Below, piece after piece: positions 1 to 35,306 of a stretch of 64,000 nucleotides of DNA. Below the pieces are notes generated by a model. It searched no databases. It saw nothing but the letters and a program-made list of their open reading frames with translations, and was not told where the DNA came from. This DNA comes from an uncultured Clostridia bacterium (GTDB taxonomy: Bacteria; Bacillota; Clostridia; TANB77; CAG-508), in NCBI GenBank assembly GCA_947623465.1, contig CANQGU010000002.1, forward strand, positions 42,818 to 106,817, read 5' to 3'. Each line of letters begins with the position of its first letter. Position 1 is the first letter of the stretch. The position numbers were made by a program, and so were the translations under genes.

Positions 1-3000
1 ATTGTCCTCCATTTTCTCTAACTCCTGGTAAATATGCCTTTATATATCCCGGATTTAGTTCACCATTTGCAAAAGGTGGGTCAAGCAGTTTTATAATTCC
101 ATTTTCTTTATCTACTAAGTGATTTTCTAAACTTTCCATCGCCTGTAATTTTTTATCTTCATCTCCTGCATTTGATATTACTGACCAACTTTGAGCTATG
201 CTATCTATCCTACATTCTTCGTTTTCAATGCTTCCTAAAATACTTCCATTATCCATATATGCGCGTCTAAACCATCTTCCGTCCCAGCCCTTAGAATTTA
301 ATGCTATTTTTAAATCTTGAAGTATTTTTCTATATTTTTGTACTCTATCTGCTTCTCCTCTTTCTTCAATATATGGTAAAAATCTATCTATTATTGTATA
401 TAAGAAAAATCCAAGCCAAACACTTTCTCCTTTTCCTTTATTTCCAACTTCACTAAAGCCATCATTCCAGTCTCCTGTTCCAATTTTAGGAAGTCCATTT
501 TCACCAAAATTTAAAGATTTTTCTATAGCTCTAATAATGTGTTCATAAATTGTCTCTGTAATATTTGATTTTGTAAATTTATCATATCTTTCTTCTTCAT
601 TGTCTTTTAATACTTCACCTTGTAAATATGGAGTTTTTATATTTAAAATTTCTTTATCATTTGTTATATCTATATATTCTAAACATAAATATGCAAGCCA
701 TAACAAATCGTCTGAAAACCTTGTTCTTATTCCTCTTTCTGTTTCATCATGCCACCAGTGTTCTACATCTCCTTCAATAAATTGATGCTCAGAATGCTTT
801 ATTATTTGATTTTTTATCATTTCAGGATTTATATATTTTAAACACAAAGTATCTTGAAGTTGGTCTCTAAAGCCATATGCACCACCTGATTGATAAAATC
901 CTGTTCTTGCATATAATCTACTTGCAATTGTTTGATACAAAGCCCACCCATTTAGCATTATATTTATAGATTCTATTGGAGTATATACTTGGACTTTTTC
1001 TAAAATATCTTTCCATTTTCTTTTTACATTTTCAAGCTCTTGCTTGCAGTTTTGAATTTTGCTATATTTATAGCTAATATTTTTTCCATCTATTATATTA
1101 TTTGTTGCCCCTAAATTTAGCACTATTTCTTTTGAAGACATACTATCTAGCTCAACTTCTATTTGAATTGCAATACAAGATTTTGAGTCAAATCCTAAGT
1201 TATTATTTAATCTTACCTTTTTTAATCCATCTGGATTACTTAAACCACCATTTCCTAAAAAGAATTTTTTATCTCCTGTAAAACTTTTTATTTTTTCACT
1301 ACTTGATACATATACTTTACTTTTAAAATCTGATTCATAAAGATTTTCTGCAAATACCATATTAGCATTATCATCATAATTTATTTTTATCTTGCCATCT
1401 GATTTTACCTCTTCTTCACCAAGTACAGGCTTTACATAGTAAACTATTTTTAATTTTTTGCGTTCTAATGTGTTATTACTTAATTTCAATATATTTACTT
1501 TTAAAGTATCTTCATTTGGAACAAATATTTCTAACTCTTGAGTTATTCCTTGACTTTCATGAATATATTTTGAATAACCAAATCCATAAATTATACTATA
1601 ATCATTTTCATCTGGCATTGGATTTAATCCCATTGACCATCTTTTACCTGTTTTTAAATCTTCCATATATATTACTTCTGATGGAATATCTAAATGTGGT
1701 TTATTTGACCAACTTGAAATTCTATTCAACCTACAATTTTTATGCCACGTGTAGCCTCCCATACTTTCTGTAACTAAAGTTCCAAAATTTTCATTTGCTA
1801 AAACATGTGACCATACAGTTGGTAAACGTTTTTCTTTATTTACTTTAATCAAATATTCTTTTCCATTAGGTGAAAATGCACCATAATCATTAAAATACTT
1901 TATTTCTTCATTATTTAAAATATCTATTTGAGGTTTAAATTCTTCTTCTATAGATGTTTCAAAATCTTCTTCTGGAATATTTTGAAAGCTTCCCATATAT
2001 TCTTCTTCTAAATCTGAAACTAAGTGACTTAAATCCCCTAAATGTGCATCTACTGTAAAACATGAAACAAAGTTTAATACATCCCAATCCTTCTTAGATA
2101 ATTCATTTTTAGAAAGTAAAAAGATTCCGACCTTGTTTGTTCATCATAAATCCTAAGTGCCTATCAAGTATTTTAGCCTCTATTTCTTGCCTTACATAAT
2201 TTTCATAGCTGTGTTTTTCTTCATCTAAAAAAACTAAATCTACTTGTACATCTTTACTTCTAAAAAATTCATACATCTTTAAAATTTGTTTTACTACATA
2301 TACATCATTTATATCTTTTATTTTAACTAATATTATTGGTAAATCTCCTGAAATACCATTTTTCCATAAATCACTTTGTGAATATATAGAATTATTTAAG
2401 TTCTTTATTTGCTTGCATCTTAAAGGATTATCAAAAAATATATATCCTAAAATCTTTTGATATAATTCTATATCTTTTGCTTTTGTTTCTAAATACCTAC
2501 TTTCAGCCTCTGCTTTTGCTTTAGATATTTCAAATGCTCTTTTAACATTTTCTATATTTTTATATTTTTTTAGATTATCTATTGCAAAATCTCTATTTCT
2601 AGATACAGAAATAATTAAATTGATATGCTTTATGTCTTTAGGTGCAATTTTTATTGTTTTTCTTTGAACAGCTATAGGCTCAGTAACTAGACCAATTTTT
2701 TTAGAAAGTGGAATAGATTTTTCTACAGCTAGTGGCAAATTTAAATTTCCTCTTTCATCAAATTTTTCTTTATCTATTTCAAACTCATTATCAACAATTG
2801 TTTCACTATCTGTGTAAAATGCTGTTTCTAAAAATACTTCTTGTTCTGAATTGCTCCTTTTTTTGCGTTTTATTTCTAAAATATTTTCATCTACATCATA
2901 GTCAAAAATTAAAAATAAATTATTAAATGCAGGATGAGCGTAATCTTGCTCTTTGCTTGAAAGTATTGGCTCAAATGTTGATGTAATTTCAAGTTCCACA

Positions 3001-6000
3001 TCTTCATTTGATAAGTTTTCTATTTCTAAACATCTTATTTCAACCGCTTCTTCTGGATCTATTGTTATTTTTAAATTTGTTTTTATATTTTCATCCTTTT
3101 TTTCAAAACCAATTTGGTCAGGCATAAATGAAACTAAAGAGCCTTCTTCTCCCATTTTTATAACTTTATTAGAATTAATGTCTTTTACATATAAAAATAT
3201 ACCTTGATTGTAATCGTCTGTTGGTTTAAATCTATTTACATATATATTTCCACATTTACTAAATCCTTGTGACTTCTGGTTTATACCTATTGTGTATATT
3301 CCATTTGATATTACATTTGACCTAATTAATCTTTCATCAATTTTTTTGTAACTTACAACTGAATAATTTTCATAATCTTTGTATTTTCCTTTTTCTGGTT
3401 TTTCTTTTTCCTCTTTTGTTACAATAAATGTTTCTGGCATCCTTTCTTGCAATAATATTTCTACTGCTTTTGCTTCAGGGTTTTTAATAAAACGAGTCTG
3501 AAATATATTATTGTTTATTAAGTTATTTATAGAAAGCAAAATCAAAGCTTGATGGTGTGCCATATAGGTTTTAACTGCATTTGAAGTTTCATTTGAGCGT
3601 AGTCTTTGGTATGAAAAATCCAAGCTTTCATAAAAACCATATTTATTAAACATACCATATTTTTCTAGGTTTTTTAGATTTTTTACAACCTCTTTAGGCT
3701 TATCTGTAATAGCAAGTACACTTGCATAACTTGAAATTACAATTTCATCTGCTAAGCCTCGCTTCAATCCAAGCCATGGTATTCCAAATGCTTTATATTG
3801 GTAATTTGAGTGTAAATCTTTAACATTAAATGCTGATTCTGAAATTCCCCATGGAGTACCCAAAAATTTTGCATATTCTATTTGACTCATAATTGCAAAT
3901 CTAATAGATTCATCTATTAAGCTTCCTTTATATCTTGGAATATTTATATTTGGCATTAAATATTCAAATGCCGTTCCAGACCATGAAATCAAACCTTTTT
4001 TATTATTTAAAATTGTAAGTGTTCTACTTAAAGCATTCCAATGTTTTACATCAACATCTCTTTTTATAATTGCAATTAAACTTGCTTGCCTTGCTTCTGA
4101 TGCTAACAAATCATAATATGAATCTGTTAATTTATTTTCTTCAATATTAAATCCTATAGAAAATAGTCGGTGTTCTTTACTATATAATTTTGAAAAATCA
4201 GTATTTTCTATCATAGAAGTTATTTCATTAATTGTATCTGCTAAATCCTCCCTATTTTGCTCTTCTAAAAACATTTTTGTTACATATAAATACCCCACAA
4301 AATTTCCGCTATCTACTGTTGAAATATATCTTGGATTTAGTGGTTTCATAGTTTTTATATTGTACCAATTATATAAATGTCCATTCCATTTATCTAACTT
4401 CATTATTGTATTTATAATATTTTTTAAAATGTTTATTCCGCTCTTCTTTTTCAATGTAATTTAAATCAATTCCTGCTTGAATACTAAGTAAAGATAACCC
4501 AATATTTGTAGATGATGTTCTATCTACATATTTATATTTTCTATCTTCTTGGTAATTATCTGGAATTAAATAATTATTTTCTTTATTTATATTATCATAG
4601 AAAAATTCAAATGTTCTTCTTCCTATTTCTTTAACATAGCTAATTTCTTCTGTATTTAATACTGATTTTGCTTGTTTTTCTTCAATTTCTTTACTAATAT
4701 AACACATTATACTTGGTGCAATTACCCAAAGTGCTCCTAAGAAAATACCTAAAATACTTCTATTTAAAATAAAATAAATTATTGTAATTACACCAAATAA
4801 AATATTAAATACCATTGCTTTATTGTAGCTTAATAAATCACCTTTGGAATTTTTCTCTGCTTCTTCTGATGTCATCCATTCAAGCATGTGCTTTTTTGTA
4901 AATATTGTTCTATACAATGTTTTACAAATTGCTTTTAAACTAGTCCATGCTTTATATGGAATAACTGCTATTGTTAAAAATCCTCTACATATTGCTGCAA
5001 GTTTTCCATCTATTTTTGGGGTAAAATTATTTTGTTTTTGTTCTCCTTCTCTTTTAAAAATTATTGAATTTATAATTTCTAAAATATATGGCAAAACAGT
5101 TATAACAGCCAAAAGCGTAATAGGAAAAGTTACATTTATATTAAATATTTTTCCAACTACTAAAAAATAGATTCCGGAAACTATAGTCGCTATCTCAAAT
5201 AAGCTTCTTCTTAAATTATCAAAAATTTTATATTTAGAAAGTAAATTTAATTTTTTACTTTTAAGCCACCTAATTATTTGCCAGTCTCCTCTAATCCACC
5301 TAGAAAGCCTAGACATAAAGCTTGTGTATTTTGTTGGATACCCATCCATTATTAAAATATCTGATGCTAAACCACATCTTAAATAACTTCCCTCTAATAA
5401 ATCATGGCTTAAAACTGTATTTTCAGGAATTTCGTTTTTTAATATTTTTGTATATAATTTTAAATCAAATATTCCCTTACCTGTAAAAATTCCTTCTCCA
5501 AAATTATCTTGGTATATATCTGAAATAGCATTTGAATAACTATCTACTCCGCCACTTCCTGCAAATATTTTTGTAAATAATGATTTATAAGAAATATCTA
5601 AATTGATTCCTACTCTTGGCTGAATCAAACCATATCCATTTACTACTTTATTTTCTTCTACCTCTGGTTTATTTAAAATGTGAGCCATACTTCCTACCAA
5701 TTCAAAAGCTGAATTTAAACTCAAATCTGTGTCTGCATCTAATGTAATTATATATTTAATATTTGGCAACCTACTTTTAAAATTGTTTATTGTATTTATA
5801 TTAAATTTTCTTTGTTCTTCTGCATCATCCATATTTCCTTGTAGAAATTCTGTAAAATCAAGAATTGCTCCTCTTTTTCTTTCCCAACCTAGGTATGAAC
5901 CTTCACTTTTATTATACATACGCTTTCTATATATAAAGTGAAATATAGGAAACTTTTGATTTGGATATTTTTTATTTAATTTTTCCGTTTCTTCTAATCC

Positions 6001-7452
6001 TGCTCTTATAACTTGTGAATCAAAGTTTTCTATTTCTTTAGAGGATTCTTTGCAATCTCCAAGTAAACAAAAATATAGATTATCTGATTTATTTGCTAAA
6101 TAATCTACTTCCAAATTTTTAAACATTTCTTGTACTTTTTGTTTTGTACTTACTATTGTTGGAATTATAACAAAAGTTGCTTCGTTATTTGGAATTCCAT
6201 CATTAAAATCAAGTTTGGGAATTAATTTTGGTTTAACAAATTTACTTAATATATATTGAGCAATTTGTATTATAAATTCTGAAATTGGTATTAATAAAAG
6301 CAAAAATGAAACAAGGTTTATCCACATATTTTGCATACTTTGTGGATAAAAAGCTGCAATACCACCTGAAATTATAATACTTAAAACAAGAACCCAACTA
6401 ATATACATTTTTACTTTTTTGTTTGTACTTAAAATTTTTTCATTTTTATATTGAACTTTATCATATAAAATATTTACATTTTTATCTAATAAATAATATC
6501 CAATATGTGATTTTTTAGAGCCTATATCTCCTTCTTGTGCAAGCTCAAGCAATTTTTTTGCAATATACATTTCCGATATTTTAGTTTTTTTAGAAATTTC
6601 TTTTATTTTATTTCTGTAATCTTCTTTTGTTCTATAATCCATCTTATCATATACTTTTGCGGGGTCTTTTCTTAAAATTTCTTCAACACTATTTATTTTT
6701 TCAAATATCTCTAAAAAGTTTATAATTTGAATCTTTTTTAAAGATGTAATTGAATTTCCTATAGAAATTTTTTTAACAGCAATATCAAAATGCTCTCTTT
6801 TAATTATCTCTGAAACCGAGCTTCCTGTTTTTTCAACTTCTTCTTCTAAAACTCTTAAAAAACTTTCTGTCTTTTTCCCATATTTTTTTAGCTTATATGA
6901 CATGTATTCTACATAAGGATATTTTATATCATATAAATTTATTTTTATTTTTCCATTAGTCTTAAAATAACTAAAATTTTGCTCTGATTTTGGCTTATTT
7001 TCAACTAATCTTTCTATTACAGATTCAACCTTGTATTTTTCCATTTGAGATACAAAAATGCTTTCTGCAATTTGTCTTATATTTTCTATTATTGCAATTT
7101 GCATAAATATTCCTATGTTCCATATCTCGTCCATGCTTAAGTTCTTTTTTGTTTGATATGCTCTTAAGCTTTCTTCTAATATTTTACTTGTTATTTTGTT
7201 ATCTGTATAATTTACAATTTCTGAAGCAAGTACATATATTCTTGCAAACCCTTGGTACTTACCATTTGCAAGCCCTACAAAATTTTTGTATTTTTTTAAA
7301 GGCATCTGTTTTTCTATTGATTTTGTTATTTCTTCTATGGCATAAAAATTATCTAAAAGCCACTCTCCTGCAGGATGAATAGTAATTTTAGATTTTACAT
7401 TTTCATTTAATAAATTATATACTTCTTTTATAACACTATAATTTTCTAGCAT
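1..7452 (-). CDS. Cyclic beta-1,2-glucan synthase-like giant protein (N-terminal multi-TM + GT84/GT2-like domain, C-terminal GH94 cellobiose-phosphorylase-like domain). Its 3' end runs beyond the window start. The reading frame is broken twice, at ~4439 and ~2128; ORF-track pieces 4390-7452 and 2109-4454 plus an open frame 1-2140 are one gene.
   Basis: 1020-aa N-terminal ORF has 6+ TM helices and a GT2-like DxD region (ITLDADTDL). The middle ORF carries the PWGISESAFN motif. Hand translation of the minus strand 2140..1 gives GH94 motifs (YGFRDQLQD, EHWWH, KGWDGRWFRRAY, NPGYIKAYLPGVRENGGQ). Deleting one C at each junction fuses the three frames. Confidence 0.75.
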
Positions 7453-7587
7453 TCTTGGTATTGGGTAGGTATTTTTATCTGAATTTTGTTTTATATTATG
7501 AGTGCTTGCTACCTTTTCTAAATGCCCGCATGAGCTCTTGCTTGTTTAATAATGCTCCTTCAATATTTAATATTTTTGTATTCATAA

Positions 7588-7632
7588 AAATAATTCCCCC
7601 AAATTTGCAATTTTGTTTATTATTTGCAAATT
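7588..7632. terminator. Strong hairpin (15-bp stem, cccccaaatttgcaa / ttgcaaatttggggg) with flanking T-run; likely terminator of the minus-strand TA operon.
   Basis: Perfect inverted repeat read directly; lies between the antitoxin stop (7657) and the glucan synthase start (7452). Confidence 0.6.
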
Positions 7633-7656
7633 TGGGGGATGTTATTCATTAATATT

Positions 7657-8673
7657 TTATTTGATTATTTTCAAATCACTTGCATATTCAAAAGATATCT
7701 TTTCGTATTTTTTAGTTTTTTTCCATCCATCTTCTTCATGTGACATATTTGATATTTCATTCACATTTTTATTTTTTAATCTTTTAATTATTTTATCTAT
7801 TATTTCTATTTCTTTTTTATTTAATTTTGATAAATCATAATTATTATTACTTGTTATATATGTCTTAGTGCCAGTTTCATCTTCATATTCGTTTCTTGTA
7901 TACTTTTCATCTAATAATGATATTTCATTATATTTTTGTTCCATTATAGTAGGACCAAATTGTTGATTTTGATATGTTAACCCAGTGATTGAAACTCCTC
8001 TCTCTTTAAATGATAACATATCTATAAACCATAAATATTTATTTATACTTGTAATAGTAAAATTGCTCACTTTACTTGCAATGTATGAAATTATATTTTC
8101 AACTTTTTCTAAATCAAATATCTTGTATCCATTGTATATATCTGGTCTCCTATTTAATTTGCTATTTATATATTTTCTATATAATTCTTGAATATCATCT
8201 TTACTTACATCATTTTCTTCGTTATATGAGACAATTTTATTATATGTTTTTTTACTTATATTATTTTTTTCATATGCTTCTTTTACTTTATTCATAAATT
8301 CATTTTCATTATTTATTAATAGCTTTATATAATCACTTTGAGATTTTGTTGGAACTCCCCCTCTTTCATATCTATTAATGGTCATTTTTCCAAGTCCCAA
8401 AATAGATGTTAGTTCTCTTTGAGACAAATCATATTTCTCTCTTAATTTGATTATATCTTGTGGTTTAATAATATTTGCTTTTTTTCTATAAATCTCATAT
8501 ATTCTTTGAGTATTTTTATTTTCGATTTCATTAATATACAAATCTTCGTTACATTCTTTGCATATAGCAACATTTTCGTATGAGTTTATTTCTACACCTC
8601 TAAACATTTTAATATCTCTTTTTTCAATTTTATATTCTACTTCTTTTTTACAATATGGACAATATACTTTCAT
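7657..8673 (-). CDS. MqsA-like antitoxin: N-terminal YgiT/MqsA-type zinc ribbon (CPYC...CKEC), XRE-type HTH, plus an unusually long ~200-aa C-terminal extension (possibly DUF4065/Panacea-like).
   Basis: Zn-ribbon motif CPYCKKEV...CKECNEDL followed by the HTH LSQRELTSILGLGKMTINRYERG. The likely start is the internal Met (MKVYCPYC), preceded by a GGGGGA RBS and overlapping the toxin stop. The ORF-track N-terminal extension contains an in-frame CGG and is probably not translated. Confidence 0.6.
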   Translation of the reverse strand: MKVYCPYCKKEVEYKIEKRDIKMFRGVEINSYENVAICKECNEDLYINEIENKNTQRIYEIYRKKANIIKPQDIIKLREKYDLSQRELTSILGLGKMTINRYERGGVPTKSQSDYIKLLINNENEFMNKVKEAYEKNNISKKTYNKIVSYNEENDVSKDDIQELYRKYINSKLNRRPDIYNGYKIFDLEKVENIISYIASKVSNFTITSINKYLWFIDMLSFKERGVSITGLTYQNQQFGPTIMEQKYNEISLLDEKYTRNEYEDETGTKTYITSNNNYDLSKLNKKEIEIIDKIIKRLKNKNVNEISNMSHEEDGWKKTKKYEKISFEYASDLKIIK

Positions 8674-8674
8674 C

Positions 8675-9031
8675 TTAAATTCCCCCATCATATTTACCAA
8701 ATTCATGTACTGACAAACAAACCGATTTTTCTGAACTTTCAATTCTTATTTTAATATATAATTTTGTATTTTCAAATAAAGGATTAAATTTAAATATCCA
8801 TCCCTTATATTTCGAATCTCTATCCTTCTCTGGACCAGAATAACAATCCTCTATTGAAAGACCTCTTATGATATCTTTTACATCTTCATTATTTAGATTA
8901 TACTCCCTCATGAAATTTATATTCTTTTTTGTTCTTACAATAATAAATTTATCGCCATTATTATCTTGGTCTATAATTTTTTTGATTTTAAGTAAATTAC
9001 TACTCTGTATTTGGTCTTCTATTGTGTTCAT
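8675..9031 (-). CDS. MqsR-like mRNA interferase toxin (type II TA toxin)
   Basis: Local similarity to E. coli MqsR: IIRGLSIEDCYSG vs IIGLSESDFYKS, and LYIKIRI vs VYLKITV. Toxin-first order, with its stop overlapping the antitoxin start, matches the mqsRA arrangement. Confidence 0.55.
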   Translation of the reverse strand: MNTIEDQIQSSNLLKIKKIIDQDNNGDKFIIVRTKKNINFMREYNLNNEDVKDIIRGLSIEDCYSGPEKDRDSKYKGWIFKFNPLFENTKLYIKIRIESSEKSVCLSVHEFGKYDGGI

Positions 9032-9039
9032 TTGTCATC

Positions 9040-9068
9040 TCCTTTGATAAAGTGCCATTTTTTAGTGG
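9040..9068. promoter_or_regulatory. Palindrome aagtgccat-N-atggcactt immediately upstream of the toxin start; candidate TA operator.
   Basis: Inverted repeat seen in sequence, 10-35 nt upstream of the ATG at 9031. Confidence 0.3.
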
Positions 9069-9153
9069 CACTTTTTTATTTTATCACATAAATTATTAAA
9101 AAGCAATACTTTTTATCAATTTTGTATTAAAAATCATTTTTAATTTTAAAGGC

Positions 9154-9185
9154 AAAAGCTGTAATGCGTTCGCATTACAGCTTTT
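9154..9185. terminator. Hairpin terminator downstream of rbr (aaaagctgtaatgcg ttc cgcattacagctttt)
   Basis: Perfect 15-bp inverted repeat with flanking A/T runs. Confidence 0.5.
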
Positions 9186-9223
9186 AAATTCATTATTTTA
9201 GTAATTTTTATGCCATTTATTTT

Positions 9224-9757
9224 TTAATAATTTTCAGCTTTTATTTCGAAATATGCTTGTGGGTGGCTACATACTGGGCAAACTTCTGGTGCACTAGTTC
9301 CAACTACTATATGACCACAGTTTCTACATTTCCATATTTTAACTTCTCCTGCTGAAAATACTGTTCCATTTTCAACATTTTCTAATAATTTTTTATATCT
9401 TTCTTCATGTTCTTTTTCTATTTTTGCAACAGCTTCAAATAAATAAGCTATTCTATCAAATCCTTCTTCTTTAGCTGTTTTTGCAAAGTCTTGATACATA
9501 TCTGTCCACTCAAAATTTTCTCCTTCTGCAGCAGCTTTTAAGTTTTCTGCAGTTGTACCAATTCCATTTAATTCTTTAAACCACATTTTTGCATGTTCTT
9601 TTTCGTTGTCTGCTGTTTCTTGGAAAATAGCAGCTATTTGTTCATATCCTTCTTTTTTAGCTTTACTTGCAAAATATGTGTATTTATTTCTTGCTTGTGA
9701 TTCTCCTGCAAATGCAGCCATTAAATTAGCTTCTGTTTTTGATCCTTTTAATTCCAT
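9224..9757 (-). CDS. rbr: Rubrerythrin
   Basis: Ferritin-like di-iron E..EXXH motifs plus a C-terminal rubredoxin-like CxxC...CxxC (CRNCGH...CPVCSHP). Confidence 0.9.
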
Positions 9758-9877
9758 TTTTATTCCTCCTAATTATAAATTTCTTTCTTCGTATTATATC
9801 ACATTTTCATAATAATTCAAGAATTTTAAGCAATATTTTCTTTATTTAAAGTTAGTATAATATTCCTTAATTTCTTA

Positions 9878-11833
9878 TCATTGCTCATTAATTAATTCAA
9901 AATCGATTTGCCTTAAAATTTTATTTGCTGTCTTTACTCTTATATTCACTATATCCCCTATTTTATAAGTCTTTTTTGTGTGTTCTCCAATTAAAATTTT
10001 ATTATTTTCATCATAAATAAAATATTCATTTCCAAGGTCACGGAAACCTACTAAGCCTTCTACTGTATTTTCTAGCTCAACAAACATACCAAATGATGTT
10101 ATGCTTGAAACTACTCCTTCATACTCTTCACCTATATGTTTTTCCATATATTCAGCTTTTTTAATTTTCTCTGCTTCTCTTTCTGTTGTAGTTGCAATTT
10201 TTTCTCTTTCAGAAGAATTAATTGCAGCTTGATTGGCTATTGTTTTATATTTTTGTTTAAACTCTTCGGTTACATCATAGTCATTTTCTAGATATTTTGA
10301 TATTATTCTATGAATAAATAAGTCCGGATATCTTCTAATTGGTGAAGTAAAGTGGGCATAATATTTACTTGCTATTCCAAAATGACCTAAGTTTTCGTCA
10401 CTATATCTTGCAAGTTTAAGTGTTCTAAGTAATAAATTTGAAACTACTCTTTCTTCTTCTTTGCCTTTGACTTCATCTAAAACTAAAGCAAATGCTTTTG
10501 AGTGTATGTTATCTTTATTTGCTTTTATTTTTAAATCCATATTATATAAAAATTTATTTGCCTCTTTTATCTTGTCTATATCAGGCACTTCATGAATTCT
10601 ATAAATAAATGGTGCATCTAGCCAATAAAATTTTTCTGCTATAGTTTCATTTGCTGTTAGCATAAATTGCTCTATTATCTCATGAGAAAAATAAGTTTCA
10701 TATTTCTTTACATTTATTGCAAAACCTTCTTCATCAAGCTCTATTTTGCTTTCTGGTATATCTAAATTTAAGTAACCATTTTCTATTCTTCTTTGTTTTA
10801 GAATTTGTGCAAGCTCACTCATTTTTTCGAATTCAGGAATATATTTTTCATATCTTTTTAATACTTCTTCATCTGACTTATCTAAAATACTTTGTACATC
10901 TTTATAGTTCATCCTTTCAGTTACTCTTATAACTGCTTTATAAACTTTAGAATCTATTACTTCTCCTTTATTATTTATTTTCATTGAGCAACTTAAAGTA
11001 AATCTATCTTCTCCTTGATTTAAACTACATATTCCATTTGAAAGTTCTCTTGGTAGCATTGGAATTACTCTACCTAGCATATATATAGATGTACCTCTTA
11101 AATATGCTTCTTTGTCTAGTAAAGAATCCTGCTCTACATAGTGACTTACATCTGCTATATGGACATCTAAGCAAAAGTTTCCATCATCTAATTTTTGAAC
11201 TCTTACTGCATCATCTAAGTCTTTGGCATCTTCTCCATCTATTGTAAAAATAATATCATTTCTTAAATCTACTCTTGTTCCTATTTTACTTTCATCTATT
11301 TTGTTTCCTTTTGATTTTGCTTCATTTACAACTGCATCTGGAAATGTAGATGGCAGACCATATTCTTTTATTAAACTTAACATATCTACACCTGCTTCAT
11401 TTGGTCTACCTAGAACTTCTATTATTTTACCTTCTGCATTTTTATTTTTTTCTGGATATTTTAAAATTTCTACTAATACTTTATGGTTATTTCTTGCTTT
11501 TCCAAAATTTGATTTTGAAATAAATATATCTGTTCCAAAACTTGAATCATCTGGCACTACAAAGCCAAAATTTTTGTTATTTTGAAATGTCCCAACTATT
11601 GTATTTTTATTGTGTGAAAGTATTTTTAAAACTTTACCTTCTTTACTTTTTCCATTACCTTCTTTTTCTAAAATTTTTATTAATACTTTATCTCCGTTTA
11701 AAGCATGCATTGAGCGTTCTTTTGAAATATATATTTCTTCTTCGTCGTCTTCTATTTTTACAAATCCAAATCCTTTTGAGTTTCTTCTATATATTCCCTC
11801 AAATATTCTTTCTTCCATTTTATTTTTCTCCAA
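9878..11833 (-). CDS. rnr: Ribonuclease R (RNB-family 3'-5' exoribonuclease with S1/CSD domains)
   Basis: RNB catalytic motifs (RVDLR...FTIDGEDAKDLDDAV), N-terminal cold-shock-like domain and C-terminal S1 domain. Confidence 0.85.
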   Translation of the reverse strand: MEKNKMEERIFEGIYRRNSKGFGFVKIEDDEEEIYISKERSMHALNGDKVLIKILEKEGNGKSKEGKVLKILSHNKNTIVGTFQNNKNFGFVVPDDSSFGTDIFISKSNFGKARNNHKVLVEILKYPEKNKNAEGKIIEVLGRPNEAGVDMLSLIKEYGLPSTFPDAVVNEAKSKGNKIDESKIGTRVDLRNDIIFTIDGEDAKDLDDAVRVQKLDDGNFCLDVHIADVSHYVEQDSLLDKEAYLRGTSIYMLGRVIPMLPRELSNGICSLNQGEDRFTLSCSMKINNKGEVIDSKVYKAVIRVTERMNYKDVQSILDKSDEEVLKRYEKYIPEFEKMSELAQILKQRRIENGYLNLDIPESKIELDEEGFAINVKKYETYFSHEIIEQFMLTANETIAEKFYWLDAPFIYRIHEVPDIDKIKEANKFLYNMDLKIKANKDNIHSKAFALVLDEVKGKEEERVVSNLLLRTLKLARYSDENLGHFGIASKYYAHFTSPIRRYPDLFIHRIISKYLENDYDVTEEFKQKYKTIANQAAINSSEREKIATTTEREAEKIKKAEYMEKHIGEEYEGVVSSITSFGMFVELENTVEGLVGFRDLGNEYFIYDENNKILIGEHTKKTYKIGDIVNIRVKTANKILRQIDFELINEQ

Positions 11834-34855: not shown

Positions 34856-34931
34856 GGTCGTTTAGCTCAGCTGGGAGAGCATCTGCCTTACAAGCAGGGG
34901 GTCATAGGTTCGAGCCCTATAACGACCACCA
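34856..34931 (+). tRNA. tRNA-Val (anticodon TAC)
   Basis: Cloverleaf with anticodon loop CTTACAA; near-identical to Bacillus tRNA-Val(UAC); 3' CCA encoded. Confidence 0.9.
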
Positions 34932-34940
34932 TATGTTTTT

Positions 34941-35017
34941 GGCCTGGTAGTTCAGTTGGTTAGAATGCCGCCCTGTCACGGCGGAGGTCGACGGTTCGAG
35001 CCCGTTCCAGGTCGCCA
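34941..35017 (+). tRNA. tRNA-Asp (anticodon GTC)
   Basis: Anticodon loop CTGTCAC; acceptor stem pairs; CCA encoded. Confidence 0.9.
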
Positions 35018-35037
35018 TTTTTTTATATACAAAATTT

Positions 35038-35113
<76 letters not shown>

Positions 35114-35123
35114 GAATTTTTAT

Positions 35124-35201
35124 GGTGGATGTAGCGCAGTTGGTTAGAGCGCCAGTTTGTGGCACTGGAGGTCGTGAGTTCGAGTCTCATCTTCCACCCC
35201 A
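35124..35201 (+). tRNA. tRNA-His (anticodon GTG) with extra 5' G(-1)
   Basis: Anticodon loop TTGTGGC; G-1 opposite discriminator C; CCA encoded. Confidence 0.8.
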
Positions 35202-35231
35202 TTTAATTTAACCAACTATTTAATTTTATAT

Positions 35232-35306
35232 TGGACTGTAGCCAAGCGGTAAGGCACCAGACTTTGACTCTGGCATGCGCTAGTTCGAATCTAGCCAGTC
35301 CAGCCA
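35232..35306 (+). tRNA. tRNA-Gln (anticodon TTG)
   Basis: Anticodon loop CTTTGAC; close to Bacillus tRNA-Gln(UUG); CCA encoded. Confidence 0.9.

Follow-up and report, generated by a model that had tools for sequence, protein, structure and literature searches.

A probable MqsR:PanA toxin-antitoxin operon in accessory DNA of an uncultured Clostridia bacterium

Two adjacent genes on the reverse strand of the window (the whole stretch of 64,000 nucleotides analyzed here, from an uncultured Clostridia bacterium) encode a small MqsR-like toxin and, downstream of it, a three-domain antitoxin of the PanA type (Table 1). A preliminary interpretation made from the letters of the sequence (the sequence-only reading) had placed both open reading frames correctly but had described their stop and start codons as overlapping. 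The junction reads TAA-G-ATG, with one base between the two codons, and this arrangement points to translational coupling of toxin and antitoxin. The antitoxin was taken to start at the ATG at position 8673, and not at the TTG at position 8742 further upstream that is given by the listing of open reading frames, because its homologs all begin with MKVYCPYC and a GGGGGA Shine-Dalgarno motif lies 7 nt upstream of the ATG. The Shine-Dalgarno region of the toxin gene (AAGGAGAT) is kept across related loci. The terminator hairpin beyond the antitoxin gene has perfect arms (TCCCCCAAATTTGCAA and TTGCAAATTTGGGGGA) followed by a T-run; it lies outside the strain-variable cassette described below and is also present in a strain that lacks the toxin-antitoxin genes. 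Neighbors in the window include hrcA-grpE-dnaK-dnaJ and the genes for RNase R and rubrerythrin. The downstream gene, which had been described as cyclic beta-1,2-glucan synthase-like, does belong to the GH94/glucan-synthase-like type but is split across several reading frames and does not form a single one.

Table 1. Features of the toxin-antitoxin locus, in window coordinates
Feature	Position	Strand	Basis
Terminator hairpin, 16-nt perfect arms, then T-run	7595..7639	-	
Antitoxin gene, PanA-type, 338 aa, order ZBD-HTH-Panacea	7657..8673	-	
Strain-variable 1.55-kb segment with the whole toxin-antitoxin unit	7660..9214		Comparison with strain L086
Panacea (DUF4065, PF13274) domain, residues 211-318	7720..8043	-	72.5 bits
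XRE-type helix-turn-helix (HTH) domain, residues 67-135	8269..8475	-	HTH_3, alignment to MqsA C-domain 3FMY
Zinc-binding domain (ZBD), residues 1-47, predicted ligands C5, C8, C38, C41	8533..8673	-	MqsA match
Toxin gene, 118 aa, putative mRNA interferase (MqsR-like, RelE superfamily), with Y92, K94, and H109 conserved	8675..9031	-	
Shine-Dalgarno GGGGGA of antitoxin gene, within 3' end of toxin gene, 7 nt 5' of ATG	8681..8686	-	Read from sequence
Shine-Dalgarno AGGAG of toxin gene, 7 nt 5' of ATG	9039..9043	-	Read from sequence
Putative operator, inverted repeat AAAGTGCCA-N8-TGGCACTTT	9049..9074	-	9-nt arms, 100% complementary
Extended -10 element TGaTAAAAT, 17 nt after -35	9078..9086	-	
Candidate -35 hexamer TTGCTT	9101..9106	-	Read from sequence
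Terminator-like hairpin, 15-nt perfect arms, 3' of rubrerythrin gene, within strain-variable segment	9154..9185	-	

By profile, predicted fold, and conserved partnership, the toxin is MqsR-like, which upholds the resemblance proposed in the sequence-only reading. Its score against PF15723 (MqsR_toxin) was 22.7 bits (E = 1.3e-4), below the Pfam gathering score of 26.2 bits; the match spans residues 13 to 110 of the toxin and positions 6 to 95 of the 95 in the model. Among 66 diverse relatives of the toxin, 44 matched the same profile at E ≤ 1e-3 (best E = 8.4e-10), and a profile built from these 66 found MqsR (3HI2_B) as its top match in the PDB, aligned end to end (E = 0.0023). The AF2 model of the toxin (pLDDT 94.8) led by Foldseek to MqsR again, with chains 3HI2_D and 3HI2_B at the top of the list (probability 1.00 for both; TM 0.78 and 0.76; rmsd 2.7 and 2.4 over 94 to 95 columns) and with HigB2 and BrnT next but far weaker. 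MqsR was reached only through the family profile and the structure model, and not in a single-sequence phmmer search against the PDB, where the sole match, a Nuf2 coiled coil (E = 0.026), was rejected as spurious. The toxin had no match in NCBIfam, PHROGs, or PADLOC, and relatives of it that adjoin such antitoxins are labeled "hypothetical protein" in RefSeq records.

Active sites vary among members of the RelE superfamily, and the toxin departs from Escherichia coli MqsR at several positions. Of the residues required for the toxicity of E. coli MqsR (K56, Q68, Y81, and K96; PMC2791442), only Y81 is conserved, as Tyr92, a tyrosine in 65 of the 66 toxin sequences. K56 aligns to S65, at a position that is variable in the family (K, S, D, or R); no residue aligns to Q68; and K96 aligns to H109, which is His in 62 sequences and Lys in 4. 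The lysine of the YIK motif, K94, is invariant (66/66). Because only one of the four E. coli residues is conserved, the chemistry and cleavage specificity of the toxin may differ from those of E. coli MqsR. The absence of the other three, taken with the occurrence of orphan antitoxins and truncated toxins in related species, could also mean that the toxin is a decayed or noncatalytic relative of MqsR and that the pair now serves only as a transcription regulator. We consider this very improbable: six independent assemblies carry the open reading frame intact and with the same sequence, four members of the family have the E. coli residue, Lys, in place of His109, and a near-invariant set of residues (N37, G66-P67, D70, F82, Y92, K94, S107, and H109) persists across the 66 sequences at a mean column identity of 28%, which indicates purifying selection.

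The N-terminal 130 residues of the antitoxin are a full MqsA, comprising the zinc ribbon and the XRE HTH. Residues 5 to 130 matched TIGR03830 (MqsA) at 90.2 bits (cutoff, 61.8), and scores above the cutoffs were also obtained with PF15731 (48 bits; cutoff, 30) and HTH_3 (25.5 bits; cutoff, 23). The MqsA structure 3GN5 aligns to the same residues and was the top Foldseek match (probability 1.00), and the HTH region matched HigA2 and the C-terminal domain of MqsA at an rmsd of 1.3 to 2.4. Beyond the zinc ribbon and HTH, which had both been recognized in the sequence-only reading, the protein continues for about 200 residues more than E. coli MqsA. That reading had suggested that this extension might be Panacea/DUF4065-like, and residues 211 to 318 indeed matched positions 2 to 113 of the 113 in PF13274 (SocA_Panacea/DUF4065; 72.5 bits; gathering score, 25.7), so that the MqsA and the DUF4065 profiles both exceeded their curated cutoffs. 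The structure model of the antitoxin was of moderate quality (pLDDT 71) and worse in the Panacea part, for which Foldseek found no match in the PDB; the Panacea assignment therefore rests on the sequence profile. The description of the antitoxin as unusually extended is apt in relation to E. coli MqsA (338 residues against 131 to 133 for the chains in the PDB) but not otherwise, as over 1,500 relatives of the protein were returned and its architecture is a published one. All 120 of the relatives listed, each about 338 residues long, contain both the MqsA and the Panacea domain. Their names are inconsistent and include XRE regulator, DUF4065 protein, and MqsA family protein.

The Panacea domain is also found in SocA of the Caulobacter SocA/SocB (type VI) system. 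SocA, however, acts as a ClpXP adaptor for a toxin that blocks replication (PMC8832971), is without the ZBD and HTH, and is paired with a toxin unrelated to that in the window. The antitoxin scored 13.9 bits against the SocA model NF047745 (cutoff, 190) and is not a SocA, as only the Panacea domain is common to the two.

Several lines of evidence bear on which part of the antitoxin neutralizes the toxin. The four predicted zinc ligands form a CxxC/CxxC arrangement that is invariant in 76 of 76 species-level antitoxin homologs. Across the same homologs, conservation along the protein is highest in the HTH (mean pairwise column identity, 0.69), and the Panacea domain is as well conserved as the ZBD (0.59 versus 0.57), which argues that it is under selection. 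In the 349-residue PanA of Bacillus fungorum (ZBD-HTH, residues 1 to 174; Panacea, residues 175 to 349), the ZBD alone neutralizes the toxin, whereas the Panacea domain alone and the HTH-Panacea fragment do not, and the Panacea domain is dispensable (Ernits 2023, PNAS, PMC10440598). From these truncations and from the N-terminal domain of E. coli MqsA (PMC2791442), we infer that the ZBD is the toxin-neutralizing part; the HTH would be the dimerization and operator-binding part. A stand-alone Panacea domain does neutralize its toxin directly in the PanAT system of B. choladocola (PMC10440598), and the domain's conservation here would fit a similar role. It is nevertheless most unlikely that the Panacea domain, and not the zinc ribbon, is the direct neutralizer in the window. 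The B. fungorum protein is the only antitoxin of ZBD-HTH-Panacea order to have been dissected, and it gave the opposite result; the zinc ligands are retained throughout; and the ZBD accompanies a toxin of the MqsR fold, as in E. coli, where the N-terminal domain of MqsA binds MqsR (3HI2). In several species an intact antitoxin is found with a truncated toxin or with none, and for this reason the antitoxin may have a function independent of the toxin.

Upstream of the toxin gene, 53 aligned regions gave the consensus TTGAct-17 nt-TGnTAaAAT, in which TG.TAaAAT is at least 80% conserved across related loci. Related loci have TTGACT at the position aligned to TTGCTT in the window. A generic promoter scan missed this promoter, which is backed by the cross-species alignment; the -35 element was absent from its output because the hexamer in the window matches TTGACA at 3 of 6 bases. 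The scan is uninformative in this AT-rich DNA, since it returned fewer sites than did shuffled sequences (13 versus 16.6).

A palindrome begins 4 to 5 nt past the -10 element and thus overlaps the expected transcription start. Its arms are AAAGTGCCA (positions 9074 to 9066) and TGGCACTTT (positions 9057 to 9049, both on the reverse strand), separated by a spacer of 8 nt, and the 18-bp core shared by the family is TGCCA-N8-TGGCA. The sequence-only reading had reported this palindrome at the promoter; its location held and its conservation across species was found in addition, but the base that follows the left arm is C and not T as quoted. The segment delimited in that reading ended at position 9068, inside the palindrome. 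With at most one mismatch allowed, 66 of 80 loci have the core in the 150 nt that precede the operon, compared with 10 occurrences in the other 851 kb, and the block TGCCATCAAAAAgTGGCA is 80 to 99% conserved where its flanks are 30 to 60% conserved. Chance does not account for the palindrome, given this conserved placement of its core among related loci, and the palindrome is likely the operator of the antitoxin, to whose HTH it would bind.

The palindrome might instead act as RNA, either by forming a hairpin at the 5' end that stabilizes the mRNA or by terminating transcription of the opposite strand. The leader RNA has a folding energy of -12.1 kcal/mol (z = -4.1), and a generic scan rated the palindrome as terminator-like on the forward strand. 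In most related loci, however, complementarity extends over the 5- to 6-bp core only, and the core is invariant and does not covary. Conservation extends to the asymmetric spacer TCAAAAAG, and an invariant core with a conserved spacer fits sequence-specific recognition better than it does a stem-loop. The expected start, about 7 nt past the -10 element, lies inside the left arm, so that the stem would be truncated in the transcript. No convincing forward-strand gene reads into the palindrome, the only candidates being short open reading frames within reverse-strand genes, and the operon itself encodes a predicted HTH autorepressor. A role at the RNA level is therefore unlikely, and we retain the protein-bound operator as the working interpretation.

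Conservation of the toxin-antitoxin pair extends to about 70 species-level genomes. In most of 79 species-level loci, the gene directly upstream of the antitoxin encodes a toxin homolog, at a toxin identity of 34 to 83%. Within the host's own species the unit varies: in strain L086, which is 97.5 to 98% identical, 75 unrelated bases replace positions 7660 to 9214, on a contig of only 3 kb with about 2x coverage. The cassette, from the promoter through the antitoxin stop codon, is thus accessory DNA, since a strain about 98% identical is without the whole 1.55 kb. Nucleotide similarity to the cassettes of other species extends only from about position 9135 to position 7656, and those cassettes sit in unrelated neighborhoods. 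When synteny with the window's flanks (RNase R, rubrerythrin, and the GH94 gene) was sought at the toxin-antitoxin loci of other species, the sole echo was a rubrerythrin gene 1.6 kb from the locus in L038. With flanks that are not syntenic in other species, the cassette is not vertically fixed at this site. It carries no integrase, transposase, or attC-like element of its own, and a search of the indel edges for target-site duplications or terminal repeats returned only AAATAAA-like strings, which are meaningless in DNA of 23 to 26% GC. A foreign origin could not be argued from composition, the G+C contents of cassette (23.0%) and window (26.2%) being too close.

Taken as a whole, the locus is best explained as a self-contained type II MqsR:PanA toxin-antitoxin operon with the toxin gene first, an antitoxin of ZBD-HTH-Panacea order, and a location in accessory DNA, a reading to which we assign a probability of roughly 85%. 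The toxin would be an RelE-fold endoribonuclease of the MqsR family that arrests growth by cutting mRNA, as its homology suggests. The four-cysteine zinc ribbon of the antitoxin would bind and neutralize it, in the manner of the N-terminal domain of MqsA and the B. fungorum truncations, and the XRE HTH would dimerize and repress its own operon, presumably through the candidate TGCCA-N8-TGGCA operator over the transcription start. Both genes would be expressed from one promoter with coupled translation. The Panacea domain would not be the neutralizer; most likely it serves as a regulator or sensor that times toxin release, a published but unproven hypothesis.

The toxin gene comes first in the E. 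coli mqsRA operon, as it does here. The E. coli proteins (3HI2, 3GN5, and 3O9X) share the toxin fold (TM 0.76 to 0.78) at an identity of just 19 to 20%, and E. coli MqsA aligns over its whole length to the zinc ribbon and XRE HTH of the antitoxin. Each operon has a palindromic element in its own promoter, but the core is TGCCA-N8-TGGCA (candidate) in the window and AACCT-N3-AGGTT in E. coli (PMC4894380). The window antitoxin differs from MqsA by its additional residues, Panacea included, and the window toxin differs from MqsR by having His at the K96 position and no equivalents of K56 and Q68.

The pairing of a ZBD-HTH-Panacea PanA with MqsR has already been published (PMC8832971 and PMC10440598), and the cassette is an ordinary two-gene toxin-antitoxin unit of a kind already dissected in Bacillus. 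MqsR-like is the commonest known toxin domain among the partners of PanA (n = 90; Kurata 2022, PNAS, PMC8832971). The MqsR(D2):PanA pair of B. fungorum (WP_099686063.1 and WP_099686064.1) has, like that in the window, an MqsR-like toxin and the ZBD-HTH-Panacea order, an antitoxin of nearly equal length (349 versus 338 residues), and, from the consecutive accession numbers, probably the same toxin-antitoxin gene order. The window's host, in contrast, belongs to a lineage of gut Clostridia known from metagenome-assembled genomes, and similarity to Bacillus-type antitoxins is low (27 to 29% identity over residues 1 to 216). A B. cereus plasmid toxin encoded beside a Panacea antitoxin matched the toxin profile from the window with an hhalign probability of 96.9% (E = 1.3e-10). 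In this plasmid relative, the Tyr at residue 97 lies outside the YIK motif, and the protein differs from the B. fungorum toxin, in which Y97 is catalytic. The MqsR:PanA pair of Herbaspirillum frisingense likewise has an MqsR-like toxin adjoining a DUF4065/Panacea antitoxin; that toxin is toxic, yet in E. coli its PanA failed to neutralize it (Kurata 2022, PMC8832971).

It is possible that the pair serves abortive infection or phage defense, with the Panacea domain detecting a phage cue and then freeing or activating the MqsR-like RNase, rather than acting simply as an addiction or selfish element. Such a role would refine the type II operon reading and does not exclude it. A sensor role for the Panacea domain in multidomain PanAs has been proposed, and toxin-antitoxin networks have been tied to defense systems (Ernits 2023, PMC10440598); MqsR/MqsA is called a phage-defense system in a review (PMC13409141). 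The strain variability of the cassette is in keeping with such a role, as is the fact that the Panacea domain is as conserved as the ZBD though dispensable for neutralization in B. fungorum. On Clostridium plasmids, distant relatives have genes for an N-6 DNA methylase and AbiEi as neighbors, and a full-length family is represented in phages (phrog_10390). However, no PADLOC defense model was matched, the cassette in the window sits among housekeeping genes and not in a defense island, and Panacea domains have no known trigger. We therefore hold the defense role as tentative. More speculative still is a joint reading in which the Clostridia MqsR:PanA cassettes would be phage- or stress-sensing abortive modules with the Panacea domain as trigger sensor, the His-containing active site (Y92/K94/H109) would have a cleavage specificity unlike that of E. 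coli MqsR, the 18-bp TGCCATCAAAAAGTGGCA operator would represent a new MqsA-type DNA specificity, and the intact orphan antitoxins would be anti-addiction or cross-regulating factors.

The value of these results is mainly one of annotation. What they add to prior work is the conservation across about 70 genomes, the conserved candidate operator, a strain without the cassette, and a His-bearing toxin subfamily that scores below threshold. Many MqsR-like toxins of gut and rumen Clostridia have probably been missed, because the subfamily falls below the Pfam threshold and its members are "hypothetical" in RefSeq. The conserved candidate operator offers a ready test of MqsA-type DNA recognition beyond the Proteobacteria, and the abundance and conservation of the clade (more than 1,500 relatives) make it good material for asking what a nonneutralizing Panacea domain does. 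One avenue for testing the effect of the cassette on its host may be the use of the natural strains that carry it and those that do not.

The toxin and antitoxin genes are flanked by hairpins and a candidate promoter of their own and therefore form a compact transcription unit (see the table). The mechanical ORF list opens the antitoxin at a TTG at 8742, within the toxin gene; the start was placed at 8673 because all antitoxin homologues begin with MKVYCPYC and a GGGGGA Shine-Dalgarno sequence lies 7 nt 5' of this ATG. The sequence-only reading had described the pair correctly save in two details: the toxin stop and antitoxin start, which it gave as overlapping, are adjacent (TAA, one base, ATG), and the palindrome that it placed at the promoter is present as a perfect inverted repeat, with one of the quoted bases wrong.

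Features of the toxin-antitoxin transcription unit, in window coordinates
Feature	Position	Strand	Remarks
Hairpin closing the rubrerythrin gene	9154-9185		15-nt arms; upstream of toxin gene
Candidate promoter	9106-9078	-	TTGCTT, 17 nt, TGaTAAAAT; upstream of toxin gene
Perfect inverted repeat	9074-9049	-	AAAGTGCCA-N8-TGGCACTTT; upstream of toxin gene
Toxin ORF	8675-9031	-	118 aa; preceded by AGGAG ribosome-binding site; stop TAA
Antitoxin ORF	ATG 8673 to 7657	-	338 aa; opens one base past toxin TAA
Hairpin and T-run	7595-7639		16-nt arms; downstream of antitoxin gene

The toxin's match to the Pfam MqsR_toxin model (PF15723; 22.7 bits, E = 1.3e-4) falls below the gathering score of 26.2 and spans nearly the whole model; NCBIfam, PHROGs, and PADLOC gave no match. 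Exhaustive searching of 1.84 billion representatives with phmmer recovered 273 relatives, and the toxin alignment comprised 66 full-length relatives (mean column identity, 28%), 44 of which matched PF15723 (best E = 8.4e-10). In the PDB, the family profile matched E. coli MqsR best (3HI2_B), from end to end and with E = 0.0023. For the AlphaFold2 model built on this alignment (pLDDT 94.8), both MqsR chains of 3HI2 held the top Foldseek ranks (probability 1.00, TM 0.76 to 0.78, rmsd 2.4 to 2.7 A), with HigB2 and BrnT far behind. The MqsR likeness noticed earlier was thus borne out, and the assignment of the predicted structure to the MqsR fold is secure.

Toxicity of E. coli MqsR requires K56, Q68, Y81, and K96 (PMC2791442), a set that the predicted active site of the window subfamily appears to match only in part. 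The Y81 equivalent, Y92, is kept in 65 of the 66 sequences, and K94, two residues further on, is invariant. The K96 position holds His in 62 relatives and Lys in 4, that of K56 is variable (Ser in the window toxin), and no aligned counterpart of Q68 was found in the 66-sequence alignment. The subfamily has near-invariant residues of its own (N37, G66-P67, D70, F82, and S107), which makes a relic less likely than a working enzyme. The apparent His-for-Lys active-site variant in this under-annotated subfamily is a modest novelty.

Residues 5 to 130 of the antitoxin constitute a complete MqsA by profile, phmmer, and Foldseek. The protein scored 90.2 bits against TIGR03830 (cutoff, 61.8), 48 bits against PF15731, and 25.5 bits against HTH_3; phmmer aligned this region to full-length E. 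coli MqsA (3GN5; E = 2e-6), and MqsA was the top Foldseek match of the antitoxin model. These results uphold the proposed MqsA-type zinc ribbon and XRE-type helix-turn-helix (HTH). None of the four putative zinc ligands (C5, C8, C38, and C41) varies among 76 species-level homologues. The extension, tentatively likened to Panacea/DUF4065, does match that domain at residues 211 to 318 (PF13274; 72.5 bits versus 25.7), an assignment taken from the sequence profile because the whole-antitoxin AlphaFold model is moderate (pLDDT 71) and weakest in the Panacea part. SocA was rejected as an identity: its equivalog profile scored 13.9, far under the threshold of 190, and the antitoxin is therefore of the PanA (Panacea-containing) type.

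PanA antitoxins were defined by Kurata et al. 2022 (PMC8832971), who found an HTH at the N terminus of 343 and reported MqsR-like proteins as the commonest recognisable partner toxins (n = 90); the predicted DUF4065-MqsR link dates from 2013 (per PMC8832971). The B. fungorum MqsR:PanA pair was dissected by Ernits et al. 2023 (PMC10440598). Its 349-aa PanA shares the layout of the window antitoxin, a zinc-binding domain (ZBD) and HTH (1-174) followed by Panacea (175-349). Its toxin loses toxicity upon a Tyr substitution and is neutralised by ZBD or ZBD-HTH and not by Panacea alone or HTH-Panacea; Panacea was proposed to act as a sensor (PMC10440598). The window pair belongs to this published, experimentally dissected class, and the original observation was real and correctly interpreted. 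With 1,518 relatives retrieved by the antitoxin search, the MqsA-Panacea architecture is abundant; the 120 listed are all ~338 aa with both PF13274 and PF15731. A full-length PHROG family also matches (phrog_10390, E = 3.5e-31). Plasmids of Clostridium estertheticum and C. tagluense carry copies 45 to 46% identical, annotated "MqsA family protein," and the toxin profile matched a B. cereus plasmid toxin that adjoins a Panacea antitoxin (hhalign probability, 96.9%).

Aligned upstream regions of related loci share TTGAct, 17 nt, TG.TAaAAT, 4 to 5 nt, and then TGCCATCAAAAAgTGGCA, a block 80 to 99% conserved (neighbouring positions, 30 to 60%). In 66/80 loci the core TGCCA-N8-TGGCA (≤1 mismatch) lies no more than 150 nt upstream of the operon; there are 67 matches in the 12 kb upstream of operons versus 10 in the remaining 851 kb, at least 3 of which also lie beside an operon. 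Its overlap with the expected transcription start, together with the HTH protein encoded in the operon, leads us to read the element as a putative operator. The palindrome might instead act as an RNA hairpin, as the folding energy of the leader in the window strain (-12.1 kcal/mol, z = -4.1) would allow; however, the core is invariant, without covariation, the asymmetric spacer is conserved too, and the expected start falls within the left arm, which makes this less likely than an operator. The putative operator, a modest and apparently clade-specific novelty, is distinct from the AACCT-N3-AGGTT site of E. coli MqsA (PMC4894380). By analogy with characterised homologues, the HTH dimer would bind the palindrome and autorepress the operon, the toxin would be an mRNA-cleaving RNase, and the zinc ribbon would bind and neutralise it. 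We hypothesize that Panacea senses a trigger, possibly phage related, and controls toxin release. On the + strand, the palindrome followed by TTTATTTTAT is the sole terminator-like site scored in the 2-kb region, and no convincing + strand gene reads into it.

Contigs from several samples carry the exact toxin and antitoxin proteins in an unchanged gene neighbourhood (hrcA-grpE-dnaK-dnaJ, RNase R, rubrerythrin, the pair, and a GH94-like gene). In L086, a contig of a near-identical strain from another sample, rubrerythrin is identical and the DNA on both sides is 97.5 to 98% identical, but 75 unrelated bases join window 9215 to ~7659, so the whole cassette is missing. These natural plus/minus strains are also new, if modestly so. 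Nucleotide similarity to cassettes of other species (77 to 80%) spans only ~9135 (promoter) to 7656 (antitoxin stop). The latter is also the right-hand edge of the L086 indel. The promoter-to-stop unit therefore behaves as a mobile module; neither a recombinase nor meaningful terminal repeats were found for the cassette, and its setting in the window is no recognisable mobile-element or defence island. The cassette lies directly downstream of the heat-shock operon, RNase R, and rubrerythrin (9224-11833 and beyond, - strand). L086 (ERZ27249358 contig, 1-2605) has a YhcG/DUF1016 gene (PDDEXK nuclease family) beside rubrerythrin, in the position that RNase R occupies in the window, and a 75-bp filler with TTACGAAAA repeats in the cassette's place; with differences on both of its sides, the rubrerythrin gene seems to sit at a hotspot of strain-variable insertion.

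Scanning a single genome for each species gave 79 related loci, mostly in gut/rumen Clostridia MAGs and also in Clostridium sediminicola, C. beijerinckii, Romboutsia, Paraclostridium, Caloramator, and Thermoanaerobacter. Most have a toxin homologue directly upstream of the antitoxin; none of these species-level loci shares the window's flanking genes, apart from a rubrerythrin gene 1.6 kb away in L038. Decay of the pair is common in other species: five loci (L025, L031, L051, L061, and L083) hold intact orphan antitoxins of 336 to 340 aa without a toxin gene, L025 with a transposase fragment upstream, and frameshifted or truncated toxins adjoin full-length antitoxins in L019, L043, and L085, a pattern consistent with the toxin being lost while the antitoxin is kept. 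A more distant ZBD-HTH-Panacea clade (L074, L077, L079, L080, and L087; 45 to 46% identity) has the reversed order: antitoxin, a 112- to 115-aa MqsR-like "hypothetical" protein, and a ~640-aa N-6 DNA methylase, which may form a three-gene module. Near these genes, L087 (C. estertheticum plasmid pCF008-B, 2492-5988) also carries an AbiEi-family antitoxin gene.

The GH94/cyclic-beta-1,2-glucan-synthase-like gene downstream of the pair (2109-7590, - strand) is interrupted by frame changes: starting at ATG 7584, a 29-aa ORF runs on, in another frame, into a 1020-aa ORF (4390-7452), and a second frame change near 4440 precedes ORF 2109-4454. The breaks are real, since independent assemblies (L001, L002, and L005) split the gene identically (1020 + 764 + 827 aa) and the N-terminal break also occurs in L086, the strain lacking the cassette; the gene is probably a pseudogene. 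A Pfam search of the 1020-aa piece returned nothing. At the Rfam gathering level, nothing in the window matched except a five-tRNA cluster at 34856-35303 (+ strand).
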